From Escherichia coli (GTDB taxonomy: Bacteria > Pseudomonadota > Gammaproteobacteria > Enterobacterales > Enterobacteriaceae): a stretch of DNA of 64,000 nt. Numbering within the stretch: position 1 is the stretch's first letter; each line of letters starts with the position of its first letter. A program made the translations under genes and the position numbers. Positions 2,781-18,746 of the stretch are shown here, piece after piece. Where the stretch lies: the NCBI RefSeq assembly GCF_044324875.1, contig NZ_CP172185.1, one strand, 5' to 3'. The notes under the pieces are model-generated. The model was not told where the DNA came from. It saw nothing but the letters and a program-made list of their open reading frames with translations, and ran no database searches.

Positions 2781-3644
2781 CTAATCGTCTATTTCGGAAA
2801 CCTTCTTATTCAGCAGACGAGAAGCGCGCCAGTAAACCAGCAACATCAGGCCCATTACGATAGTCAGCGTAATGCTGGTGGCTGCACCAAACGGCCAGTC
2901 ACGAATATTGAGGAACTGTACCTTGATGACGTTACCGATCAGCAGGTTTTTCGCACCGCCCATCAGGTCGGACACATAGAACAGGCCCATCGCTGGCAGC
3001 ATCACCAGCAGACATCCGGCAATAATTCCCGGCATCGTCAGTGGGATAATGATGCGGATAAAGGTCTGCAACTTGCTGGCACCGAGATCGCGCGCCGCCT
3101 CAAGCAACGGCTTATCCAGTTTTTCGATACTGGAGTACAGCGGCATCACCATAAACGGTAGCAGAATGTAAACCAGACCGATAATCACCGCACTGGGCGT
3201 GAACATGATGCGAATTGGTGTATCAATAACGCCCAGCCAGAGCAAAAACTCGTTGAGATAGCCTTTGGTGCTGAGGAAAATTTTCAGCCCGTAGATACGA
3301 ATCAATGAGTTGGTCCAGAACGGAACAATCAGCAGAAACAGCAGCAGCGGACGCACCTTGTGTGGCAGCTTCGCCAGAAACCAGGCAAAAGGATAGCCCA
3401 GCACCAGGCAGGCGAGGGTGGCGATCAGCGCCATATTCAGCGAGTGCAATAGCACTTCAAAATAGAGCGGATCGAGCAGACGCGTGTAGTTATCCAGCGT
3501 AAAGACCATTTTGACGAAACTGGCGTCGTCGCGGGTCAAAAAGCTGGTGCCAATGATCATCAGGTTGGGCAGAAAGACAAACAACACAAGCCAACCGACA
3601 ATAGTGACAATCACTACATTCTGGAACTTACTTGTGTTCTTCAT
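2781..3644 (-). CDS. potB: spermidine/putrescine ABC transporter permease PotB (C-terminus possibly altered at a rearrangement junction)
   Basis: Multi-TM ABC permease immediately downstream of potA with a 17-bp overlap. The sequence is recognised as PotB. The last residues (…KKVSEIDD) precede an AT-rich non-pot region where potC is expected. Confidence 0.85.
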
Positions 3645-4764
3645 CAGCCAGTACGACCTCCCAGCTTTCTACCCAATTAATGGCCATTTTTTGGTCGAGA
3701 GAGTGGTCAAAGTCAGGATCGTCTTCATTGAAGAATTCGCTGACCATCACCATCTTGCCATTTTCCAGTTCAACAACCGACTCCAGCGTCATGCCTTTGT
3801 AGTTACGCTCGCGAACGTAACCAATCAGCCCTTCAGCGTGGTTGTCGTCGTTAATCTCTTCAACACGTAAGTCTTCCGGGCGCAGCAGAACATGCAGTTT
3901 TTGCCCCGGTTCAACGGCGAAGTTAACGTAGATATTACATTCGCGGCCTTCAACGTTGGCGCGTACGCGCTGCTCGTCTAGACGTTCGATGACAGTGGCG
4001 TTAAACATATTGATTTCGCCAATAAACCCAGCAACAAACAGGTTTTTCGGCTCTTCATAGATTTCACGCGGCGTGCCGTCTTGCTCAATGCGACCATCGC
4101 GCATCACCACAATCCTGTCCGACATGGTGAGTGCTTCTTCCTGGTCGTGAGTCACGAAGACGAATGTAATGCCAAGCTTACGCTGTAACGCTTTCAGCTC
4201 GTTCTGCATTTGCTTGCGCAGTTTGTAATCCAGCGCTGAGAGCGACTCATCCAGCAACAACAGACGAGGCTTGTTAACCACTGCGCGGGCAATGGCGACG
4301 CGTTGCTGTTGACCACCAGAGAGCTGATGCGGTTTGCGTTGAGCGAAGGTTTCCAGCTGCACCATCCGCAGGGCTTCCATCACGCGGGGCGTAATTTCAG
4401 CAGCGGGGGTTTTTTGCATGCGTAACCCAAAGGCCACATTTTCGAACACGGTCATGTGGGGGAAAAGTGCGTAGCTTTGGAAAACAGTGTTCACATAGCG
4501 GTTTTCCGCCGGAACGTGGGTGATGTCCTCGTTATCCAGCATGATGCGTCCGGAATCAACAGTTTCCAGACCTGCAATCAGGCGAAGAACGGTTGTTTTA
4601 CCGCAGCCAGAAGGGCCAAGCAGCGTGAGGAACTCGCCATTGTTGATAGTCAGATCCAGCTGGGGAATGACCTCTTTACCATCAAAGCATTTGCGAATTC
4701 CCGCCAATTGCACCAGCGGTGAAAGCGAACTCGGTTGTTTATTCAATTTTTTACTCTGTCCCAT
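3628..4764 (-). CDS. potA: spermidine/putrescine ABC transporter ATPase PotA
   Basis: 378 aa with Walker [24 protein letters not shown] and a C-terminal TOBE domain. The sequence is recognised as PotA. Confidence 0.92.
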
Positions 4765-5013
4765 GTAAACGCAACGGATGGCTTACCGATGCGGGGTTTG
4801 TGGTTAACCACCTTGGTGACTCTTAATGAGGGCGGTAATTCTACGGCAAACCGCTTGAATCGCCAATCTTTGTTGTGAATTACTGGCTTAGCTTTATATT
4901 CATTAAGGTAATGCTGATAAATATTCCCGCTTGCAGGGGTAAAAGTGACCTGACGCAATATTTGTCTTTTCTTGCTTCTTAATAATGTTGTCACAAAAAG
5001 TGAGGGTGACTAC

Positions 5014-6240
5014 ATGGATAAACTACTTGAGCGATTTTTGAACTACGTGTCTCTGGATACCCAATCAAAGGCAGGGGTGAGACAGGTTCCCAGCACGGAA
5101 GGCCAATGGAAGTTATTGCATCTGCTGAAAGAGCAGCTCGAAGAGATGGGGCTTATCAATGTGACCTTAAGTGAGAAGGGCACTTTGATGGCGACGTTAC
5201 CGGCTAACGTCCCTGGCGATATCCCGGCGATTGGCTTTATTTCTCATGTGGATACCTCACCGGATTGCAGCGGCAAAAATGTGAATCCGCAAATTGTTGA
5301 AAACTATCGCGGTGGCGATATTGCGCTGGGTATCGGCGATGAAGTTTTATCACCGGTTATGTTCCCGGTGCTGCATCAGCTACTGAGTCAGACGCTGATT
5401 ACCACCGATGGTAAAACCTTGTTAGGAGCCGATGACAAAGCAGGTATTGCAGAAATCATGACCGCGCTGGCGGTATTGCAACAGAAAAACATTCCGCATG
5501 GTGATATTCGCGTCGCCTTTACCCCGGATGAAGAAGTGGGCAAAGGGGCGAAACATTTTGATGTTGACGCCTTCGATGCCCGCTGGGCTTACACCGTTGA
5601 TGGTGGTGGCGTAGGCGAACTGGAGTTTGAAAACTTCAACGCTGCGTCGGTCAATATCAAAATTGTAGGCAATAACGTTCACCCAGGCACAGCGAAAGGT
5701 GTAATGGTGAATGCGCTGTCGCTGGCGGCACGTATTCATGCGGAAGTTCCGGCGGATGAAAGCCCGGAAATGACAGAAGGCTATGAAGGTTTCTATCACC
5801 TGGCGAGCATGAAAGGCACCGTTGAACGGGCCGATATGCACTACATCATCCGTGATTTCGACCGTAAACAGTTTGAAGCGCGTAAACGTAAAATGATGGA
5901 GATCGCCAAAAAAGTGGGCAAAGGGTTACATCCTGATTGCTACATTGAATTGGTGATTGAAGACAGTTACTACAATATGCGCGAGAAAGTGGTTGAGCAT
6001 CCGCATATTCTCGATATCGCCCAGCAGGCGATGCGTGACTGCGATATTGAACCGGAACTGAAACCGATCCGCGGCGGTACCGACGGCGCGCAGTTGTCGT
6101 TTATGGGATTACCGTGCCCGAACCTGTTCACTGGCGGTTACAACTATCATGGTAAGCATGAGTTTGTGACTCTGGAAGGTATGGAAAAAGCGGTGCAGGT
6201 GATCGTCCGTATTGCCGAGTTAACGGCGCAACGGAAGTAA
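5014..6240 (+). CDS. pepT: peptidase T (tripeptide aminopeptidase)
   Basis: 408-aa M20 peptidase starting [21 protein letters not shown]. It is divergent from potA as in K-12. Confidence 0.9.
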
Positions 6241-7410: not shown

Positions 7411-7611
7411 GTTAAGCATCCACAGGCTGGTATCTGCAACCGATTATAACGGATGCTTAACGTAATGCGTGAAGTATGGGCATACTTTATCAATTAGTGT
7501 TTTTTGCCGTTTCATAATGTTTCAGGTTGTGCATTATGTTTTTGATTATAAACAAATTTGTGATTTTTCTTGTTCCAGCTTGTTTCACGTTGTAGCCCTT
7601 TGTGCAACGAT

Positions 7612-7637
7612 CGGTGTAGTTAATGGTGTAGTTAATT
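7612..7637. repeat. attL core (26-bp direct repeat)
   Basis: Identical 26-mer at 18721-18746. The flanking 30 bp are weakly similar, including the motif ttgtt(t/c)cacgttgt. Confidence 0.7.
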
Positions 7638-8888
7638 GTGATGACCGGATTCAAAATTATGAGCAGAGCACTTAACAAGCTGAGCGATACACAGCTAAGG
7701 AAAATCAACGGCACACCCGCCCAAAAAACAGCCTTTCTTAATGACGGTGGAAACTTGAGCGTCAGGCATTCAACCAGCGGCCTTTTAACCTGGTATTTCA
7801 CTTACAGGGCCGGAACGGGAAGGGGGGCATCACCGGAACGCATTAAGCTGGGAAATTATCCTGATCTGAGCCTGAAATCAGCCAGGGAAAAAGCCGCCCA
7901 GTGTCGCGCATGGCTGGCTGAGGGGAAAAATCCACGTCATGAGATGAATTACACCGTACAGGAAGCGTTAAAGCCTGTAACGGTTGGCGATGCGCTCACC
8001 TACTGGCTTGAGTCGTACGCAAAGGAAAACCGTGTGGATTATGACCCACTGAAAAAGCGGCTAAATAATCACGTAATACAGCACATTGGCCCTATGCCGC
8101 TGGATAAATGCGAGCTACGGCACTGGCTGGCCTGTTTTGATCGGGTGGCAAAGCAAGCCCCTGTTTCCGCCGGGTTCCTGCTACAGACATGCAAACAGGC
8201 GCTTAAGTTCTGCCGGAAGCGGCGCTATGCAATCAGCAACGTTCTTGATGATATGAGTGTGGCTGACGTTGGGAAAAAACCGGATATAGGCGAACGTGTC
8301 TTAAGTACCAAAGAACTGGGCGAATTATTGCAGGCACTGGACAAAAAAATATTTTCCCCTTACTACGTCGCACTAATCCGCCTCCTGATTGTTTTCGGAT
8401 GCCGGACAGTAGAACTGAGGTTATCGGAGATCGGCGAGTGGGATTTTACCGAAATGCTCTGGACCGTTCCGAAGGAGCACAGCAAAACGAAGGTAGCCAT
8501 ATTCCGGCCCATACCGGAAGCGATACTGCCGTTCGTCACGCAGCTGATGGAGCAGAACAGGCACACGGGCTTATTGCTGGGGGAAGTGAAACAGGAAACC
8601 AGCGTGTCGCAGTACGGCAGATTAGTGCACAGGAGGCTTAAACACCCTCACTGGTCACTGCATGACATCCGGCGCACCTTTACAACGATGCTGAACGATT
8701 TAGGCGTGGATCCTCACGTCGTGGAGCAGCTTACAGGCCACCAGATGCCAGGAATGCAGCGAGTTTATAATCATTCCCGTTATCTGGATGCGAAACGCAA
8801 TGCGCTGGATATGTGGACGGAGCGGTTAGGGATACTGGCGGGAGCACATGAAAACGTAACCACGCTACCAGTAACCAGAAGAAAATAA
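7638..8888 (+). CDS. int: tyrosine site-specific integrase (P4/CP4-57-type)
   Basis: 416 aa. The C-terminal catalytic region reads ...HDIRRTFTTMLNDLGVDPHVVEQLTGHQ...VYNHSRYLD (R..HxxR..Y). It sits immediately inside attL. Confidence 0.85.
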   Translation: MMTGFKIMSRALNKLSDTQLRKINGTPAQKTAFLNDGGNLSVRHSTSGLLTWYFTYRAGTGRGASPERIKLGNYPDLSLKSAREKAAQCRAWLAEGKNPRHEMNYTVQEALKPVTVGDALTYWLESYAKENRVDYDPLKKRLNNHVIQHIGPMPLDKCELRHWLACFDRVAKQAPVSAGFLLQTCKQALKFCRKRRYAISNVLDDMSVADVGKKPDIGERVLSTKELGELLQALDKKIFSPYYVALIRLLIVFGCRTVELRLSEIGEWDFTEMLWTVPKEHSKTKVAIFRPIPEAILPFVTQLMEQNRHTGLLLGEVKQETSVSQYGRLVHRRLKHPHWSLHDIRRTFTTMLNDLGVDPHVVEQLTGHQMPGMQRVYNHSRYLDAKRNALDMWTERLGILAGAHENVTTLPVTRRK

Positions 8889-8936: not shown

Positions 8937-8970
8937 ACAACGTGAAACAATAAGCAACAACGTGAAACAA
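8937..8970 (+). promoter_or_regulatory. tandem copies of a 14-bp motif (acaacgtgaaacaa) that may be integrase arm-type sites
   Basis: The same 14-mer occurs in inverted orientation next to attL (7580-7593). It also occurs with one mismatch next to attR (18689-18702). Confidence 0.4.
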
Positions 8971-9262
8971 CCACGAACAAGAGGTCAAAAAGTATACAGA
9001 TTTATAAGTTGCTGATTTTTAATGCTCAACTGGTTTTTTATACATTAGCGAATAACGCTTTAAATAGTGAGAAAAAAGTCATAAAACGAGATTTTATGCC
9101 TTTGCATAATACTGAATTAAAATGATTTTTATTAAAATCACCCCGTTTCTGTAAAATACCCGCCACCAACATTTGCCAACTCTGAATCACCCTGACACAA
9201 TCAGACACATCCCAACGCAATAGAACACGAAATAACTCTTTAAGAAACGAAAGGGGGCAATA

Positions 9263-9451
9263 GTGTTAAGCACTGATCGGTTTATACGTGAAAAAGAATG
9301 CGAAAAGCTAACAGGCCTTAGCCGCTCATGCCGCTACCGCCTGGAAAAGGCCGGACAATTCCCATCACGGCGTAAGCTGGGCGGTCGTTCCGTTGGCTGG
9401 TCTTTATCCGAAGTTCTGGCATGGAAGGAAAGCTGCGAGGCAGTTCACTAA
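9263..9451 (+). CDS. alpA: AlpA-family phage/satellite transcriptional regulator (excisionase-like HTH)
   Basis: 62 aa reading ...EKECEKLTGLSRSCRYRLEKAGQFPSRRKLGGRSVGWSLSEVLAWKE. This is a typical AlpA/MerR-like HTH. Confidence 0.75.
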   Translation: MLSTDRFIREKECEKLTGLSRSCRYRLEKAGQFPSRRKLGGRSVGWSLSEVLAWKESCEAVH

Positions 9452-11347: not shown

Positions 11348-11635
11348 ATGAAAAATAAAAATTCTGGCGTTAATGCCAGCGGCCCCGCTCGTCCTGAAAT
11401 CCGTCCCGGCGATATTTTCCGTGATAACTACGGCGGCACGGTAATGATTAAGGGCGTGGAAGAACGGCGCGTAACCTACCGCCGTGATGGCTACGAATAT
11501 GACTGCGTTATGCCTGTTTATCAGTTCCGGCGTGATTTCACGCTGGTGGGCCATCGTAAAGCCGTTAATCAGAAACGTGCTGCAAGTTATATCCGCAAAA
11601 TCCGTGAAATGCTGGTCGCAGGGGGTAAGAAATGA
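11348..11635 (+). CDS. hypothetical protein
   Basis: 95-aa ORF overlapping the rep start (ATGA). Confidence 0.45.
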   Translation: MKNKNSGVNASGPARPEIRPGDIFRDNYGGTVMIKGVEERRVTYRRDGYEYDCVMPVYQFRRDFTLVGHRKAVNQKRAASYIRKIREMLVAGGKK

Positions 11636-13038
11636 AACTTGCACCGAACGTAAAACTGTTACCGAAAGATAAACACACTGAGGCGGTTATTTTTGCGGGT
11701 GATAATGCTCACTCCTTTGCAGAACATTACATGATTGCACAGGCCAAAAAAGCAGGCGATCCCATCCCTCCGGTTTACCTGGGCCGTTATCAGTTAAGCG
11801 AACTGGACAACTTACAGATTGTTGATGAAGGACGATACAGGGCAAAGGTCATACGCGCCGGAAACCTGGACGATATGCAGATGCTGACCATTGCCACAAA
11901 ACTGGCGATCGCCGGAGTCCAGGAGGCGCGCCTACTTTCTGAAAATTTCGAACTGCTGGAGGACTGGAGCGACCAGCTACCACGACTACGGGAAACATGG
12001 GAGAGAGGGGAAAGCCTGGTCATGAATGGCGGAAAGCGAAAAATCACACTTCCCATCTCATGGGGTTCTGAGGGATTCGATGCGCAGCAAAGCTACGTCA
12101 TTAAGGGGCTTATTCCGGCTGAGTCATTATGCAGCACCTACGGGGCCAGCGGTTCTTATAAATCGTTCCTCGCCATTTCCTGGTCGTGCCATGTTGCCAC
12201 AGGTATGGCATGGGGAGGCCGCAGGGTAAGTAAGGGTGCGGTTATCTATATCGCTGGCGAAGGCAGCATGGGCGTAAAACGCCGCGTTAAGGCGTGGGAG
12301 ATAACCCACGACAAGGTGGTTACAGATTTGTGCATCATTAACGCGCCTGTTTTCCCTGCATCGCCTGACTATGTGGAGCAGGTTATCAGGACTGCCGGAC
12401 TTGTTAAGAGCAGAACGGGCGAAAATGTGCGGCTGATTGTGATCGACACGCTGGCCCGTTGCTTTGGTGGGAATGATGAAAATGATTCCCGTGATATGGG
12501 CGCATTTATCCAGGGGTGTGACGCGATAAAGCAGGCCACAGGGGCCACGGTGCTGGTGGTTCACCATTCCGGCAAGGATGAAACAAAGGGGGCGCGTGGT
12601 TCCAGTGCATTCCGTGCCGCGCTTGATGCAGAGTACCGAATCAGCCGCGAAAATTCAGACGTTACAGCACTGGTCGCAGCATGTACGAAGATGAAGGACG
12701 CAGAGGAGCCAAAAGAGAGCGCATACGACCTTAAAAGCGTGGAGGTGTTCACCGATACAGATGGCGAAGAAATTGTGTCCATGGTGGTGATTGACGTTCC
12801 CCGCGCCCCTGCTGAACTGGAGCGCATCGAGGAGGCAGGCAACAAGACGGAAAACCATACCGCGCTATGGGGGTGCATCCGTTCACGCACACAGAACGGC
12901 GACAAGTGCACGATCCCGCTGTTACGTGATGACATGAAACGGCTTGGGTATGACGTGAAAAATATGCGGCGATGGTTAGCCAAACTGGAAAAAGACGCCG
13001 TGATTTACATTGATGGTGATGATGTAGGACCACTGTAA
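11632..13038 (+). CDS. replication initiator / RepA-like RecA-fold NTPase (AAA_25-type)
   Basis: 468 aa with Walker A YGASGSYKSFLAI, Walker B LIVIDTLARCF and VLVVHHSGKDETKG. These are typical of RepA/AAA_25 helicase-like satellite and plasmid replication proteins. The iteron array follows immediately. Confidence 0.75.
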   Translation: MKLAPNVKLLPKDKHTEAVIFAGDNAHSFAEHYMIAQAKKAGDPIPPVYLGRYQLSELDNLQIVDEGRYRAKVIRAGNLDDMQMLTIATKLAIAGVQEARLLSENFELLEDWSDQLPRLRETWERGESLVMNGGKRKITLPISWGSEGFDAQQSYVIKGLIPAESLCSTYGASGSYKSFLAISWSCHVATGMAWGGRRVSKGAVIYIAGEGSMGVKRRVKAWEITHDKVVTDLCIINAPVFPASPDYVEQVIRTAGLVKSRTGENVRLIVIDTLARCFGGNDENDSRDMGAFIQGCDAIKQATGATVLVVHHSGKDETKGARGSSAFRAALDAEYRISRENSDVTALVAACTKMKDAEEPKESAYDLKSVEVFTDTDGEEIVSMVVIDVPRAPAELERIEEAGNKTENHTALWGCIRSRTQNGDKCTIPLLRDDMKRLGYDVKNMRRWLAKLEKDAVIYIDGDDVGPL

Positions 13039-13237
13039 AAAGTGAGTAGTAAAAGTGAGTAATGGTGAGGTTTTTACAAAATATTAACACAATTACTCAC
13101 TTTCTCACCTGTATACATGCTCAAAAGTGAGCAGTGAAAAAACACTTATGAAACATGCACATATAAAACACAAAAATCTCAAGTGAGACGAAGTGAGACG
13201 CTTTAAAAAGTGAGTAGTAAAAGTGAGAGATGGTGAG
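13037..13237. repeat. iteron-type replication origin (multiple agtgag-based repeats)
   Basis: The 33-mer aaaaagtgagtagtaaaagtgag(t/a)(a/g)atggtgag occurs at 13037-13069 and 13205-13237. Shorter copies are aggtgagaaagtgagtaa (inverted, 13093-13110), aaaagtgagcagtgaaaa and aagtgagacgaagtgagacg, all in AT-rich surroundings. Confidence 0.6.
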
Positions 13238-14784: not shown

Positions 14785-14991
14785 ATGGCAGAAGAGAAAA
14801 AAGGCGGGGTGACGGTCTACATAAGCCCCGACATCGTGGAGGCGCTCAAGGAACGCCACCAGCAGAATGTAAAAGCAGGCATTGCGGCAGGACTTGATCC
14901 GCTGGCGATGGTTGAGCCGTCAACAGGCTGGCAGGTGCGTACCTATTTACGTGCGGCGCTGGGTATCAATCAGGTTCACGGAGGTGAATAA
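14785..14991 (+). CDS. hypothetical small protein, first gene of the capsid operon
   Basis: 68-aa ORF with an RBS (aagaggaa). Its stop overlaps the MCP start (TAATG). It follows an AT-rich promoter-like region (14630-14784) that contains the partial palindrome ttgcaacat...ttgttgcgcaaaatgcaa. Confidence 0.4.
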   Translation: MAEEKKGGVTVYISPDIVEALKERHQQNVKAGIAAGLDPLAMVEPSTGWQVRTYLRAALGINQVHGGE

Positions 14992-16046
14992 TGACAGGCA
15001 AAGCAAAGGCACTTACAACTAACCAGCTTTTCGCGTACCTGAATCGCGGGGATATTTCGGAATATAAATTTAGTCCGCTGTTTACCACGCTGTTTTTCCC
15101 GAACGTGGCGACCTTCAACACCCAAAACATCATGCTGGACACCCTGGACATTGAAGAGGTTACGATGTCAGCGTTCTGTTCTCCTATGGTGGGTAGTCAG
15201 GTCCAGCGCGATAAAGGGTACGAAACCAGCACGATTAAACCAGGCTACATGAAGCCAAAGCACGAAATCGATCCAACAAAGACCATCATGCGCATGGATG
15301 GAGAAGATCCGGCACAGCTTAACGATCCAACTTACCGCCGTATGCGCCTGATTACTGGCAACATGCGCCGCCAGATAAACGCCATTAAGGCGCGCGTGGA
15401 ATGGCTGGCGGTGAATGCGGTAACGACCGGAAAAAACATCATTGAGGGCGAAGGCATAGAACGCTATGAAATCGACTGGAAAATACCGGAAAACTGCATC
15501 ATACAGCAGGCCAGTGGTAAAAAATGGTCCCAGCAGGATAAAGACATGCACGACCCAATCTATGACATCGAGCTTTATGCTGATCAGGCAGGTTGCCCCG
15601 CCAACGTCATGATTATGGGCGGTGAGGTATGGCGCACATTACGCAGCTTTAAAAAATTCCGTGAACTGTACGATCTTTCCCGTGGATCAGAATCCGCCGC
15701 CGAGCTGGCCTGTAAAAACCTGGGCGAAGTGGTGAGCTTTAAAGGCTATCTTGGTGATCTGGCCCTTATCGTCTATTCCGGCAAATACACTGACAGCGAC
15801 GGGACCGAAAAATATTTCCTTGAGCCTGATTTGCTGGTCCTGGGTAACACCAACAATAAAGGGCTGGTGGCATATGGTGCGATTATGGATCAGGAAGCGG
15901 TAAGAACGGGCGCAACGCAAAACATGTACTACCCGAAAAACTGGATTGAGGACGGCGATCCGGCGATTGAGTACGTGCAGACGCACAGCGCACCGCAGCC
16001 TGTACCGGCAGATATTCGCAAATTTGTTACCGTCAAAATTGCTTAA
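14991..16046 (+). CDS. major capsid protein, lambda gpE family
   Basis: 351 aa, alignable over its full length with lambda gpE. Shared blocks include F.PLF..LFF, KPGYMKPKHEIDP (lambda KPGYVKPKHEVNP), EDPAQLNDPTYRRMR (lambda EDPQNLADPAYRRRR), YSGKY, YPKNW..GDPA and SAP. Confidence 0.85.
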   Translation: MTGKAKALTTNQLFAYLNRGDISEYKFSPLFTTLFFPNVATFNTQNIMLDTLDIEEVTMSAFCSPMVGSQVQRDKGYETSTIKPGYMKPKHEIDPTKTIMRMDGEDPAQLNDPTYRRMRLITGNMRRQINAIKARVEWLAVNAVTTGKNIIEGEGIERYEIDWKIPENCIIQQASGKKWSQQDKDMHDPIYDIELYADQAGCPANVMIMGGEVWRTLRSFKKFRELYDLSRGSESAAELACKNLGEVVSFKGYLGDLALIVYSGKYTDSDGTEKYFLEPDLLVLGNTNNKGLVAYGAIMDQEAVRTGATQNMYYPKNWIEDGDPAIEYVQTHSAPQPVPADIRKFVTVKIA

Positions 16047-16057
16047 CGGGGGATTCT

Positions 16058-16393
16058 ATGGACGCTCCATACATTGAGTTATTTTCAGGCAGCCAACAGG
16101 TATCCACGACGCTGGTACATTTTGCCGCTGATGCTGGCGTTATTCAGGAATTTACCCCGCTGATGCTGGCAGACAATGGCGAGTTTAAGCCGTGGGATGG
16201 TAAGGAATCTGGCAAGGCTGTTTATCTGACCTCGTACCCTGTGGACACGTCAAAGCAGAAATCAGCACAGTGTTACAAGACGGGGATATTCAATATTGCC
16301 GCCGTTAACTGGCCTGACAGCGTCGACACCGATGCGAAAAAATGCGCCGCCTTTGCGGGTTCCGGCGTATCCGTTCAGCCGCTGGCCCGATAA
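16058..16393 (+). CDS. head decoration protein, lambda gpD-like
   Basis: 111 aa, the same size as gpD. ...TPLMLADNGEFKPWDG... resembles lambda TPLMLDTSSRKLVAWDG. ...YKTGIFNIAAVNWPDSVDTDAKKCAAFAGSGVSV resembles lambda [35 protein letters not shown]. Confidence 0.7.
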   Translation: MDAPYIELFSGSQQVSTTLVHFAADAGVIQEFTPLMLADNGEFKPWDGKESGKAVYLTSYPVDTSKQKSAQCYKTGIFNIAAVNWPDSVDTDAKKCAAFAGSGVSVQPLAR

Positions 16394-16460
16394 GCAGGGG
16401 GAACGATGGCACAAACCAGGGCGATGACGGCGACATCTATCGCATACTGAAAACCATCTG

Positions 16461-16493
16461 AGACAAGGCCGGAGAAATCCGGCTTTTTTTGCG
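16461..16493 (+). terminator. rho-independent terminator after the capsid genes
   Basis: gacaaggccggagaaatccggctttttttgcgg. Confidence 0.6.
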
Positions 16494-16521
16494 GGTCCTT
16501 TCCGGCATGTGGACCCGTTAC

Positions 16522-16690
16522 GGGGCGTCGACCTCGCACGTTTTCGCTATTTATGAAAATTTTCCGGGAAAAAGCATGTCAGTTCTTCTTGTTATTAACA
16601 TATTGTTTTTAAAGAAATAACTATCAAGAAAGAAACGACATCATAATGATGAAAAATCTGTTTTTTTTGGCATTTCATGTCGTAACTGAT
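16522..16690. other. lambda-type cos site: cosN (cohesive-end sequence) plus cosB-like R3/I/R2/R1 sites upstream of the Nu1 homologue
   Basis: ggggcgtcgacctcgcacgttttcgctatttatgaaaattttccgg is near-identical to the lambda left end GGGCGGCGACCTCGCGGGTTTTCGCTATTTATGAAAATTTTCCGG. Downstream lie gttcttcttgttattaac (R3-like), aagaaagaaacgacatc (R2-like) and catgtcgtaactg (R1-like), separated by A/T-rich spacers. Confidence 0.7.
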
Positions 16691-16710
16691 TTTTGATAAG
16701 GAATTGCTGA

Positions 16711-17295
16711 ATGAATGTTAATAAAAAGAGGCTTGCCGAAATTTTTAACGTGGACCCGCGGACGATTGAACGCTGGCAGTCACAGGGGCTTCCTTGCGTC
16801 TCCAAAGGCAGTAAGGGCATTGAATCTGTATTTGATACTGCCATGGCAATTCAGTGGTATGCGCGGAGGGAAACTGATATCGAAAACGAAAAGCTCCGCA
16901 AAGAACTGGACGATTTGCGTGCGGCAGCGGAGTCAGATTTACAACCCGGCACCATTGACTATGAACGCTATCGGCTCACAAAAGCGCAGGCAGATGCGCA
17001 GGAACTTAAAAACGAGCGCGATCGCGGTGACGTGATTGATACAGAGTTTTGCATGTACGCGCTTTCAAAACTGGCGAGTCAGATTTCATCAATCATGGAC
17101 AGCCTCCCGCTTACTATGCAAAGGAGCTTCCCACAGATGACCCCCGCCATGCTGGATGGCCTGAAAAAAGAAGTTGTCAGAGCCTGTAACGCATGCACAA
17201 AACTTGATGAAAACATCCCGCGAATGCTGTCCGATTATCTGATGGAAACTACCGGAAATGTGCCTGATAAGTTTCAGCCGGATAAAGACAAGTAA
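16711..17295 (+). CDS. terminase small subunit, lambda Nu1 family
   Basis: [30 protein letters not shown]...[48 protein letters not shown]... closely parallels lambda Nu1 (MEVNKKQLADIFGASIRTIQNWQEQGMPV...[48 protein letters not shown]). A C-terminal segment like the gpA-interacting region is present. Confidence 0.85.
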
Positions 17296-17554: not shown

Positions 17555-17935
17555 ATGAAAATTCAAAAATCAGCCGTTTTCCGCGATGCTCCCGCCCCGT
17601 GGCAGGGCACCCCACAAGGAGGACCCGCCATCACTATGGAGGACATGACCATGACCGAGACCGAAGCGCTCGGGATAATCCGCAGTATTACCGGAATCAG
17701 CCAGCAGGCTGGCGAACAGGAGGCCACGCAGCCGGACAGCGTGATCGCCGAAAATTACGTGCGTGTTGTTGCTGATGTAATGCGCCGTGATGGTATTGAG
17801 CTTAACGGCGTGGATATGCGCGACATACGAATCAGAGTACTAGAGTTGCTGGCATACCGTCGACGCGTGGCGATGTATCAGGAGAGCGCGAAAAACACTT
17901 ATCAGTGGAAGAAGCCGGAGCGGTTACGGCGGTAA
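17555..17935 (+). CDS. hypothetical protein downstream of terS
   Basis: About 126 aa from MKIQKSAVF. It is Asp/Glu/Arg-rich with no recognisable motif, and occupies the slot where lambda would encode gpA. Confidence 0.4.
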   Translation: MKIQKSAVFRDAPAPWQGTPQGGPAITMEDMTMTETEALGIIRSITGISQQAGEQEATQPDSVIAENYVRVVADVMRRDGIELNGVDMRDIRIRVLELLAYRRRVAMYQESAKNTYQWKKPERLRR

Positions 17936-17939
17936 CTGG

Positions 17940-18265
17940 TTGATATTTTCGAAATTCGCCAGCGGCGAACATCGGGGAAACCAGCCTAACCAGTTGATTC
18001 TTTCGGAAACAGCCATTGGCGGAATCCGGCGCGGTAACTTGCTGATATTCCCGATAACGCAAAATTGCGCTGGCTACATCCCTCACATCTGAGGACTGAT
18101 AATGCGACATTGCGCTGGCTGGCAAAGTGCAAAATTGCACGATGGCCTAACCCATTGATTATTTCGAAAACCTGCAATGCAGGAAATCGGGGAAGTAAGC
18201 CTAAGCTATTGATTCTTTCGGAAACCTCAATTTGAGGAAGTCGGCGCGGTAACTCGCTGAACTTA
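17940..18265. repeat. two ~110-bp direct repeat units with conserved flanks and variable internal palindromes
   Basis: Unit 1 spans 17940-18050 and unit 2 spans 18152-18262. Each contains ttgat(a/t)tttcgaaa, then a perfect palindrome (ttcgccagcggcgaa or cctgcaatgcagg), then atcggggaa..agcctaa..ttgattctttcggaaac, then a second palindrome (gccattggc or cctcaatttgagg), then ..cggcgcggtaact.gctga. The spacer between units carries more palindromes (gcgcaaaattgcgc, cctcacatctgagg, gtgcaaaattgcac). Confidence 0.6.
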
Positions 18266-18720
18266 AAGCAAACCTCAAAATTGAGCTGGCTGAATAATCA
18301 TTATGATTACGCAGATGATTAAGGAATGACCGAAGGCGGAAATTCGCCTGTGGTTGATGGGGGAGTTGCAGATCTGCAACTCGACCATGAAACTACGGAA
18401 ACTACCCGTAGTTTGGGTAGTAAGAGTAACACCCAGATTTTGGGACTTACTCGTGATACCCAAATTTGGAGTATCGGTGGCAACCATAACGACTTTCGTT
18501 ACGGTTGATGCTTTTACCCCATTGGGGGAAAGGTATTACGATAATCATAACACCTACCGAACAGGTAAAGCCCACCAGCCTGATTGACATTTAACCGGAA
18601 AAAAAGCCAGGTAGCCCCGTTATGTGGATCCCCATATCGACAGCAACGCCCCCTTAAAATTACCCGCCTTTATATTTCTTGTGCCTATTTGTTCCACGTT
18701 GTTTCATACAGTGCGCCGAA

Positions 18721-18746
18721 CGGTGTAGTTAATGGTGTAGTTAATT
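18721..18746. repeat. attR core (26-bp direct repeat)
   Basis: Identical to 7612-7637. Confidence 0.7.

Follow-up and report, generated by a model that had tools for sequence, protein, structure and literature searches.

The 64-kb stretch of Escherichia coli DNA that concerns us here (contig NZ_CP172185.1; we call the whole stretch the window, and all coordinates are positions in it) harbours a phage satellite of the type known as a phage-inducible chromosomal island (PICI), and our interest lies in its packaging module, which joins a complete cos site of the phage lambda family to an intact plus-strand gene for a full-length small terminase subunit (TerS) of the Nu1 family. This module is a mosaic of four pieces with sharp breakpoints, it belongs to the phage 21 group and not to the lambda type, and the C-terminal half of its TerS is, on sequence comparison, a distinct satellite-only lineage. 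We would give about an even chance to the idea that the satellite TerS binds the island's own cosB together with integration host factor (IHF) and, via its C-terminal half, recruits the large terminase subunit (TerL) of a lambdoid helper phage, so that island concatemers are packaged. A preliminary description of the region had come to a related view that survives in part: the complete lambda-family cos, the intact Nu1-family TerS and the satellite island are all borne out, but the lambda type and the cognate pairing of TerS with cos are not.

The cos site spans 16493-16688 and comprises cosQ, cosN and the R3-I1-R2-R1 array of cosB, with R3 at bp 50-65 and the spacing fully kept (Table 1). Indeed, the distance from cosN to the ATG of terS is 188 bp, the same as in phage 21, and a blastn search with the cos/terS region of the window returns phage 21 cos/gene 1 at E=6e-162 and phage PhiR5_1 at E=2e-156, a homology well past anything chance could give. 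cosN itself, GGGCGTCGACCT, is identical at 11 of 12 positions to the GGGCGGCGACCT of lambda and phage 21, the sole mismatch being a change of G6 to T. It is the only copy with one mismatch that a scan of the window returned, at 16523-16534, and the cosN scan found no second cos in the window of the sort present in EcCICFT073. The 46 bp starting at 16523, which had been likened to the lambda cohesive-end region, do match lambda at 42 of 46 positions, and the three R-site-like elements and IHF-like spacers noticed downstream of cosN fall into the phage 21 register as R3, I1, R2 and R1. Counts of the short (7-bp) R-core motif carry no significance on their own, and the evidence for cosB is its position and alignment.

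The first gene after the R sites (open reading frame (ORF) 16711-17295, with the ribosome-binding site AAGGA 7 nt 5' of the start) is a Nu1 homologue, just as the preliminary description had it: its 194 aa are intact and match Pfam Phage_Nu1 (PF07471) over profile positions 1-161 of 164 at E=1.4e-71. The winged helix-turn-helix (HTH), however, was wrongly thought to be highly similar to Nu1, since it shares 32/60 residues with lambda Nu1 and 57/60 with phage 21 gp1. The same holds for the whole of residues 1-100, where 97/100 are those of phage 21 gp1 and 62/100 those of lambda Nu1, and the structure of the phage 21 TerS DNA-binding domain (DBD; PDB 7LWR) aligns with 51/54 identities, the lambda TerS DBD being matched as well. 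Beyond that point the picture changes, with 28/94 of residues 101-194 shared with phage 21 gp1 and 34/94 with lambda Nu1. Even so, these C-terminal 94 aa alone match Nu1 profile positions 101-161 at E=1.3e-13, and the final helix agrees with that of lambda (LDELIPGLLSEYIEQS) at 10/16 positions. The earlier suggestion that the C-terminus still looks like a gpA-binding segment is thus right as to homology, but identity to that segment of lambda is 35/80 and the lineage is one of satellites only. A search of the PDB gave no solved structure that includes TerS's C-terminal half.

At the level of DNA, the mosaic is very clear. The cosQ side with cosN (16463-16534) is 100% identical to a satellite in E. 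coli strain TUM1886, the spacer and cosB (16535-16710) are 92-94% identical to PhiR5_1 and 63-81% to phage 21, terS codons 1-100 (16711-17010) are 95-98% identical to phage 21 and 71-76% to PhiR5_1, and terS codons 101-194 (17011-17295) return to the TUM1886 satellite at 99-100%, with 43-62% identity to any phage. The lambda-type label formerly given to cos and TerS has to be replaced accordingly by that of a phage-21-group mosaic. The last joint falls at residue 100/101, at a conserved 10-residue motif, and coincides with the published limit of the part of TerS that interacts with TerL, residues 100-181 (PMC6739421); residues 55-100 are nearly invariant among lambda, 21, PhiR5_1 and the island. 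The TerS of the TUM1886 satellite (locus L001, in tqsA) is identical to ours at 94/94 of residues 101-194, while its DBD and cosB are unrelated.

This C-terminal half belongs to a family. TerS homologues of 193-194 aa that carry it fall into subtypes A and B, the latter about 70% identical to the former, and they join it to at least seven N-terminal types, including those with the lambda-type helix RTIQNWQE, with RTISTWQN, with RTIERWQ[S/T/M] and with an unrelated HTH. All of the genomic contexts examined are PICI-like islands, in which it is without exception the 94-aa ORF, and never TerL, that comes after terS. The replication modules differ across the family (RepA, D5-type primase or DUF927 primase), the capsid genes gpE/gpD are present in some islands and absent from others, and relatives are integrated at other att sites, in tqsA and near clpS. 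In the subtype-B loci L095 and L098, a K88-type fimbrial subunit or a ProQ-domain gene replaces gpE/gpD, and such replacements imply that the TerS/cos module travels on several island backbones. In another relative, L100 (GCA_043990165.1), the TerS, P0013, lies in the opposite orientation to the gpE/gpD/137-aa genes when compared with L101 (locus positions ~3400-5300), the cos-terS segment appearing inverted with a different cosQ flank.

Phages look quite different. In 80 viral contigs with a 21-type DBD, TerS is 182 aa or truncated in all, and those contigs that reach far enough have, 3' of TerS, a long ORF (at most 662 residues) that would fit terL. The nearest phage match to the C-terminal half is 54% identical, in PhiR5_1 (tblastn, 50,697 phage genomes), and an exhaustive HMMER search of 1.84e9 cluster representatives found only three entries at 65% identity or more, all satellite-type or partial. 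A phage TerS sharing the C-terminal half, which would have allowed the helper TerL to be named, was sought and none was found, a word-indexed search giving only E. coli fragments. Between subtypes A and B, dN/dS in the C-terminal half is 0.11-0.19 at dS 0.85-2, which indicates purifying selection, and this selection covers the extension motif ending in (D/E)K that phage TerS proteins are without.

Could all of this be an inert relic, a recombination scar left by lambdoid prophages in an island that no longer moves and whose cos and terS have no current packaging function? Such a view gains something from the DBD/cosB combination, unprecedented in phages, from the loss in our island of a 137-aa ORF that relatives possess, and from published TerS-bearing E. 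coli PICIs that were not mobilised by resident prophages (PMC6092414). We nevertheless think it very improbable, for all ORFs are intact, the cos subsites and their spacing are fully kept, the C-terminal half is under purifying selection, and ~109 assemblies have an identical TerS protein (P0001), whose location in the chromosome is the same wherever it was examined. Moreover, six assemblies share a 2,285-bp segment with cos, terS, the 94-aa ORF and the right arm at 100% identity, and among them L011 differs from the rest in the adjacent phoQ-mnmA core genes at 109 of 6,500 sites (1.7%). Had the segment diverged with these core genes, ~38 differences would be expected, and the absence of a single one over 2.3 kb points to recent movement between lineages and so counts against the idea of a relic in decay.

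How might such a module work? With four gpA-family TerL queries, tblastn found no match in the island or the entire window, nor is there a TerL remnant 3' of terS, so that packaging would need an external TerL; no helper prophage was found in the window either. We envisage that the DBD half, usually with the adjacent cosB, was acquired by recombination from lambdoid phages and fused to the satellite C-terminal half. After induction and replication, satellite TerS dimers would bind the island R sites across an IHF-bent I1, and the C-terminal half, homologous to the region of Nu1 that binds gpA, would recruit a lambdoid helper TerL, which would then nick cosN and translocate island concatemers into capsids that derive from the helper and that the gpE/gpD homologues of the island might modify. 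Candidate helpers might be PhiR5_1/PhiR12-like phages, whose cosB, capsid protein and TerS C-terminal half come closest to those of the island, or phage-21-like lambdoids, which are nearest in DBD and cosN variant. The sequence shows the anatomy of the module, its homologies and mosaic make-up, the spread and selection of the family and the want of a TerL, whereas the protein-DNA and protein-protein contacts, the helper's identity and any effect on capsids are inferred. Satellite-encoded TerS proteins have precedents in the pathogenicity islands of Staphylococcus aureus (SaPIs), in capsid-forming PICIs (cf-PICIs) and in the PICI-like elements (PLE) (PMC6739421; bioRxiv 10.1101/2022.09.08.507074; PMC11417361).

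The C-terminal half might of course do something else. On a route like that of Rpp, the protein with which other E. coli cos PICIs borrow the helper's TerS, the satellite TerS would heterodimerise with helper TerS through its N-terminal 100 residues and the helper subunit would bring TerL, leaving the C-terminal half to bind, for example, the 94-aa or capsid proteins, or to block TerL. Rpp is a remote homologue of the TerS DBD that works in this manner (PMC6739421), though RppC resembles the island DBD only weakly (E=0.16); the near-invariance of residues 55-100 would suit such pairing, and the conserved 13-aa extension and the ever-adjacent 94-aa ORF hint at a satellite-specific partner. We rate this route as improbable, however: Rpp is 30-40 residues shorter and without the TerL-binding region (PMC9026076) of which the island TerS keeps a full-length homologue, and the TUM1886-type TerS has the same C-terminal half behind an unrelated N-terminus that could not pair in the same way with a Nu1-type DBD.

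Several observations weigh against packaging by the island's own TerS, and the most serious is whether this protein matches the cosB beside it. Work from the Feiss laboratory places the determinants of lambda versus 21 specificity at R3 bp 56 and 59 and at TerS residues 20 and 24 (PMC4669245). The island helix, RTIERWQS, is the phage 21 helix, with the E and S of the phage 21 class at residues 20 and 24; its R3 has the G at bp 56 of that class (TGTCGG), but A at bp 59 (TGTCAG). In phages, helix and R3 go together. RTIERWQS occurs with TGTCGG at 80/80 loci with phage-21-type cosB (86-100% identical to that of phage 21, and 94-100% in the 78 with a located cosN), and 13 further contigs read TGTCGG; the lambda-type RTIQNWQE pairs with TTTCC in phage contigs and RTIT[A/G]WQS with AGATCC, and the PhiR5_1-type RTIDRWQT (D20/T24) is found with TGTCAG, exactly as AAGCATGTCAGTTCTT, in 7/7 cos-linked matches plus PhiR5_1. 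Our type of island alone mixes E20/S24 with A at R3 bp 59, which it does at 6/6 loci examined, and the combination of RTIERWQS with TGTCAG is absent from all the phages just listed. Given this mismatch between bp 59 and residue 20 at the reported determinants, binding of TerS to its own R3 may be weak. In mitigation, the G at bp 56 that discriminates 21 from lambda is present in all three R sites, R2 and R1 keep a TGTCG core like that of phage 21, with G at the equivalent of bp 59, and the E/D and S/T differences in the helix are conservative. The seven remaining satellite types show the same co-variation of DBD helix and R sites as phages, and one satellite pairs a lambda helix with a lambda cosB. 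This speaks for a TerS that acts on its own cosB, but it could reflect physical linkage and not function, the two lying <200 bp apart. Binding of the island TerS to its own cosB is, on these comparisons, plausible. Calling the pair cognate, as had been done, overstates the evidence, the DBD and cosB coming from two phage lineages in a pairing unseen in phages, and the proposal that their divergence is a code private to the satellite falls away, both parts being known phage specificity types.

A second difficulty is that a cosB 92-94% identical to that of a real phage makes simple cos mimicry, as in P4 and SaPIbov5, possible, in that the TerS of a PhiR5_1-like helper could package the island with no part played by the island's own. 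Taken further, this idea would have a helper TerS with RTIDRWQT package the island, while the island TerS would occupy the cosB of phage-21-like phages or poison 21-type TerS dimers without delivering TerL, and so would serve as an interference or defence factor. We consider this unlikely. The island R3 is identical to that of PhiR5_1 and in phages always goes with RTIDRWQT and never with RTIERWQS, a DBD so close to that of phage 21 gp1 should bind the phage 21 cosB and heterodimerise with 21-type TerS, and the C-terminal half, at only 29/81 identities to phage 21, is the part for which pairing with TerL is specific in lambda/21 hybrids (PMC9026076). The seven satellite types with matched DBD and cosB are a better fit to self-recognition, however, the TGTCG core of R2 and R1 and the G at bp 56 of all R sites mean that a 21-type DBD may well bind, and strong purifying selection on the C-terminal half would be unneeded for a mere decoy. 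The two ideas can also be combined, in what we offer as a speculation that we do not favour: the family might be a system of 'address label + private handle' with swappable lambdoid DBD/cosB cassettes, in which the labels of our island have become uncoupled (the protein from 21, the DNA from PhiR5_1), so that its TerS may act as a decoy against phage-21-like phages while the island rides a PhiR5_1-like helper, a combination of hijack and defence distinct from Rpp.

Packaging through the island's own TerS also has to reckon with the G6T change, which falls within cosN's left half, normally conserved in lambda-like sites, where natural variation is as a rule restricted to bp 7-12 (PMC4669245). 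The nick-site symmetry on which the preliminary description depended is retained around the nicks, with four of lambda's five symmetric pairs kept, but the central G6:C7 pair is lost. The variant was seen in 0 of the ~160 viral contigs with a readable cosN from the 21-type DBD survey and the helix/R3 survey, and an exact scan of IMG/VR gave 11 contigs, so it is rare. It does occur on contigs encoding TerS and TerL of several types and in a phage-21-like prophage of TUM1886, and its presence in TerL-encoding phages suggests that it is probably cleavable. That prophage (L093, NZ_CP128970.1 3030933-3037457) shares with our island the DBD variants V30 and R52 as well as cosN G6T and the CGCACG flank, but has a phage-21-type cosB. 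TUM1886 therefore carries both a subtype-A satellite (L001) and a phage-21-like prophage (L093) with the rare cosN, and the prophage may be the helper of this satellite, or else a partner in recombination. The subtype-B satellites L098, L095 and L225 have other cosN sequences (GGGCGGCAGACG, GGGCGGCAGCTG and GGGCGGCAGCGG), with all changes in bp 8-12 of the mutation-tolerant right half, which imply cohesive ends unlike those of lambda. Finally, the searches gave no phage TerS with a similar C-terminal half, so that the TerL partner cannot be named and its binding is purely a matter of inference, and the single published trial saw no mobilisation of two TerS-encoding E. coli PICIs by their resident prophages (PMC6092414).

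Table 1. Features of the island, with coordinates in the 64-kb window.
Feature	Coordinates	Strand	Basis or remark
attL, left copy of 75-nt direct repeat, final 26 nt identical between copies	7563..7637	+	repeat search
Tyrosine integrase	7638..8888	+	Pfam Arm-DNA-bind_3 and Phage_integrase
AlpA-family regulator, PICI hallmark	9263..9451	+	Pfam Phage_AlpA E=5e-18
DUF4222 ORF	11348-11635	+	precedes helicase
RepA-like AAA_25 replicative helicase, replication module	11632..13038	+	Pfam; 'helicase RepA family' annotation in related islands
Iteron-like repeats AAAGTGAG... (CT.TAAAAAGTGAGTAGTAAAAGTGAG...) directly after helicase gene	13033..13237	.	repeat search
Lambda gpE-family major capsid protein homologue	14991..16046	+	Pfam Phage_cap_E E=2e-49
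Lambda gpD-family head decoration protein homologue	16058..16393	+	Pfam HDPD E=1.2e-17; phrog_49
Hairpin + T-run, terminator-like, directly 5' of cosQ	16466..16491	+	sequence, repeat search; kept in related satellites
cosQ GGGTCCT, packaging termination subsite	16493..16499	+	-30..-24 position, as annotated in phage 21
cosN GGGCGTCGACCT, G6T variant, CG flanks on both sides kept (16521-16536)	16523..16534	+	sequence scan
cosB R3 AAGCATGTCAGTTCTT, PhiR5_1 type, with G at bp 56 and A at bp 59	16572..16587	+	phage 21 annotation register
I1, IHF-site homologue TAACATATTGTTT	16596..16608	+	phage 21 annotated I1 register
cosB R2, inverted, reverse complement ATGATGTCGTTTCTTT	16629..16644	-	phage 21 annotation register
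cosB R1 ATTTCATGTCGTAACTG	16672..16688	+	phage 21 annotation register
terS 5' half, aa 1-100, phage-21-type winged-HTH domain for DNA binding and dimerisation	16711..17010	+	alignment, PDB
terS 3' half, aa 101-194, satellite-specific homologue of TerL-binding half, 13-aa C-terminal extension	17011..17295	+	alignment
Conserved 94-aa ORF, phrog_1561 (function unknown)	17651..17935	+	after TerS in every satellite examined
attR, right copy of 75-nt direct repeat	18672..18746	+	repeat search

The island as a whole lies at roxA/phoQ, with E. coli roxA on its left and phoQ-phoP-purB on its right (flanks 97-100% identical to E. coli), and measures ~11.1 kb between the att repeats. It has what is expected of a Gram-negative PICI, namely a size of 10-20 kb, int, alpA, replication genes with an origin, unidirectional genes, its own att sites and no lysis or tail genes, and its gene organisation is that described for such islands (PMC6092414). 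In addition to the genes in Table 1 it encodes SSB, PerC and a 68-aa ORF, all genes being on the plus strand, and the iteron-like repeats are probably its replication origin. Just 3' of the integrase gene, at 8937-8976, there is a tandem 20-nt repeat (ACAACGTGAAACAA...), and GTTTCACGTTGT-like motifs inside the att repeats resemble it; these may be binding sites for the integrase or AlpA. The gpE homologue represents a satellite lineage with at most 47% identity to any phage major capsid protein (tblastn, 50,697 phage genomes). Gram-negative PICIs often have capsid genes, which were dispensable in the one instance put to the test (bioRxiv 10.1101/2022.07.18.500453). In the relatives L001, L011, L101 and L222 a 137-aa ORF, which some genomes annotate as a head-tail connector, lies between the decoration gene and cos. 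Our island is without it, and only its 3' end and the terminator-like hairpin are left at 16403-16491. The 94-aa ORF had no match in Pfam or the PDB. Between it and attR, the interval 17933-18291 holds a 113-nt direct repeat present twice (74% identical) and a 23-nt repeat, GATAACGCAAAATTGCGCTGGCT, present three times.

Why should such a module matter? Among E. coli cos satellites, the hijack of packaging has been worked out only for Rpp, which borrows the helper's TerS, and the family described here points to a second route, built on a full-length Nu1-type TerS with a private TerL-binding half and a swapped DNA-recognition half and cosB. Should the C-terminal half indeed bind a helper's TerL, it would define which phages can be helpers, and the family would furnish a collection of natural chimeras with which to map the interface between TerS and TerL, which is poorly understood in lambda-like terminases. 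In the same way, the heterologous DBD/R3 pair of our island is a natural test of the residue 20/bp 59 specificity rule. Modules of this kind govern the spread between E. coli lineages of islands with capsid, defence or virulence cargo.

The closest known systems are the Rpp-type cos PICIs (EcCICFT073 and its relatives; Fillol-Salom 2018/2019, Murialdo & Feiss 2022), with which our island shares int, alpA, a replication module, often a gpE-like gene, lambda-type cosQ and cosN, lambdoid helpers and a winged-HTH protein in the packaging module. The differences are nonetheless considerable. Rpp islands have a single novel R3-PICI and no I1, R2 or R1 (PMC6739421, PMC9026076), whereas ours has the phage-type R3-I1-R2-R1, and Rpp, at 144-153 aa, has no TerL-binding region and needs helper TerS, whereas the island TerS is a full-length Nu1-family protein. 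RppC resembles the TerS DBD only, and three other island ORFs tested against it gave no match. With a full-length TerS, C-terminal Nu1 homology and a tripartite cosB, the Rpp label was rejected. The contrast with Rpp drawn in the preliminary description is sound in that Rpp is the sole characterised route, but it overlooked that TerS-encoding Gram-negative PICIs had already been reported: some carry a terS homologue, including two tested E. coli islands, left uncharacterised in 2018 (PMC6092414). The two tested islands are those that failed to be mobilised. The cf-PICIs (bioRxiv 10.1101/2022.09.08.507074) likewise have their own capsid proteins and TerS, but theirs is the complete set for head and packaging, with TerL, HNH, portal and protease, and they rely on HNH-cos helpers; this label too was rejected, since only gpE/gpD-family genes and TerS are present here, with no TerL.

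In pac-type SaPIs (TerS-S plus Ppi) and in PLE, the satellite's own small terminase also redirects the helper large terminase to satellite DNA, but these are headful (pac) systems with unrelated TerS families, whereas our island combines a cos that has defined R sites with a chimeric TerS of the Nu1 family; no Ppi-like partner was identified in the window island. P4 and SaPIbov5 carry the helper's cos and no TerS, while our island has its own TerS beside its PhiR5_1-like cosB. The Nu1/gp1 family trait of a terL that comes next and overlaps is absent from the window island. As a kind, the satellite-encoded small terminase is already known. What would be new here, judging from the comparisons above, is a satellite-private lineage of the TerL-binding half with swappable DBD/cosB cassettes, together with a natural heterologous DBD/R3 pair, and in the literature searched no paper was found that deals with a Nu1-type TerS of a PICI, with its cos or with its mosaic make-up. 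Perhaps the most instructive parallel is with the lambda-21 hybrids with chimeric TerS made in the Feiss laboratory (PMC9026076), which also join a phage 21 DBD to a heterologous TerL-specificity half, at a joint in the conserved middle of TerS and in about the same crossover region as in our island. The island TerS, in contrast, is a natural chimera, its C-terminal half is neither that of lambda nor that of 21, and its cosB comes from a third, PhiR5_1-like source.

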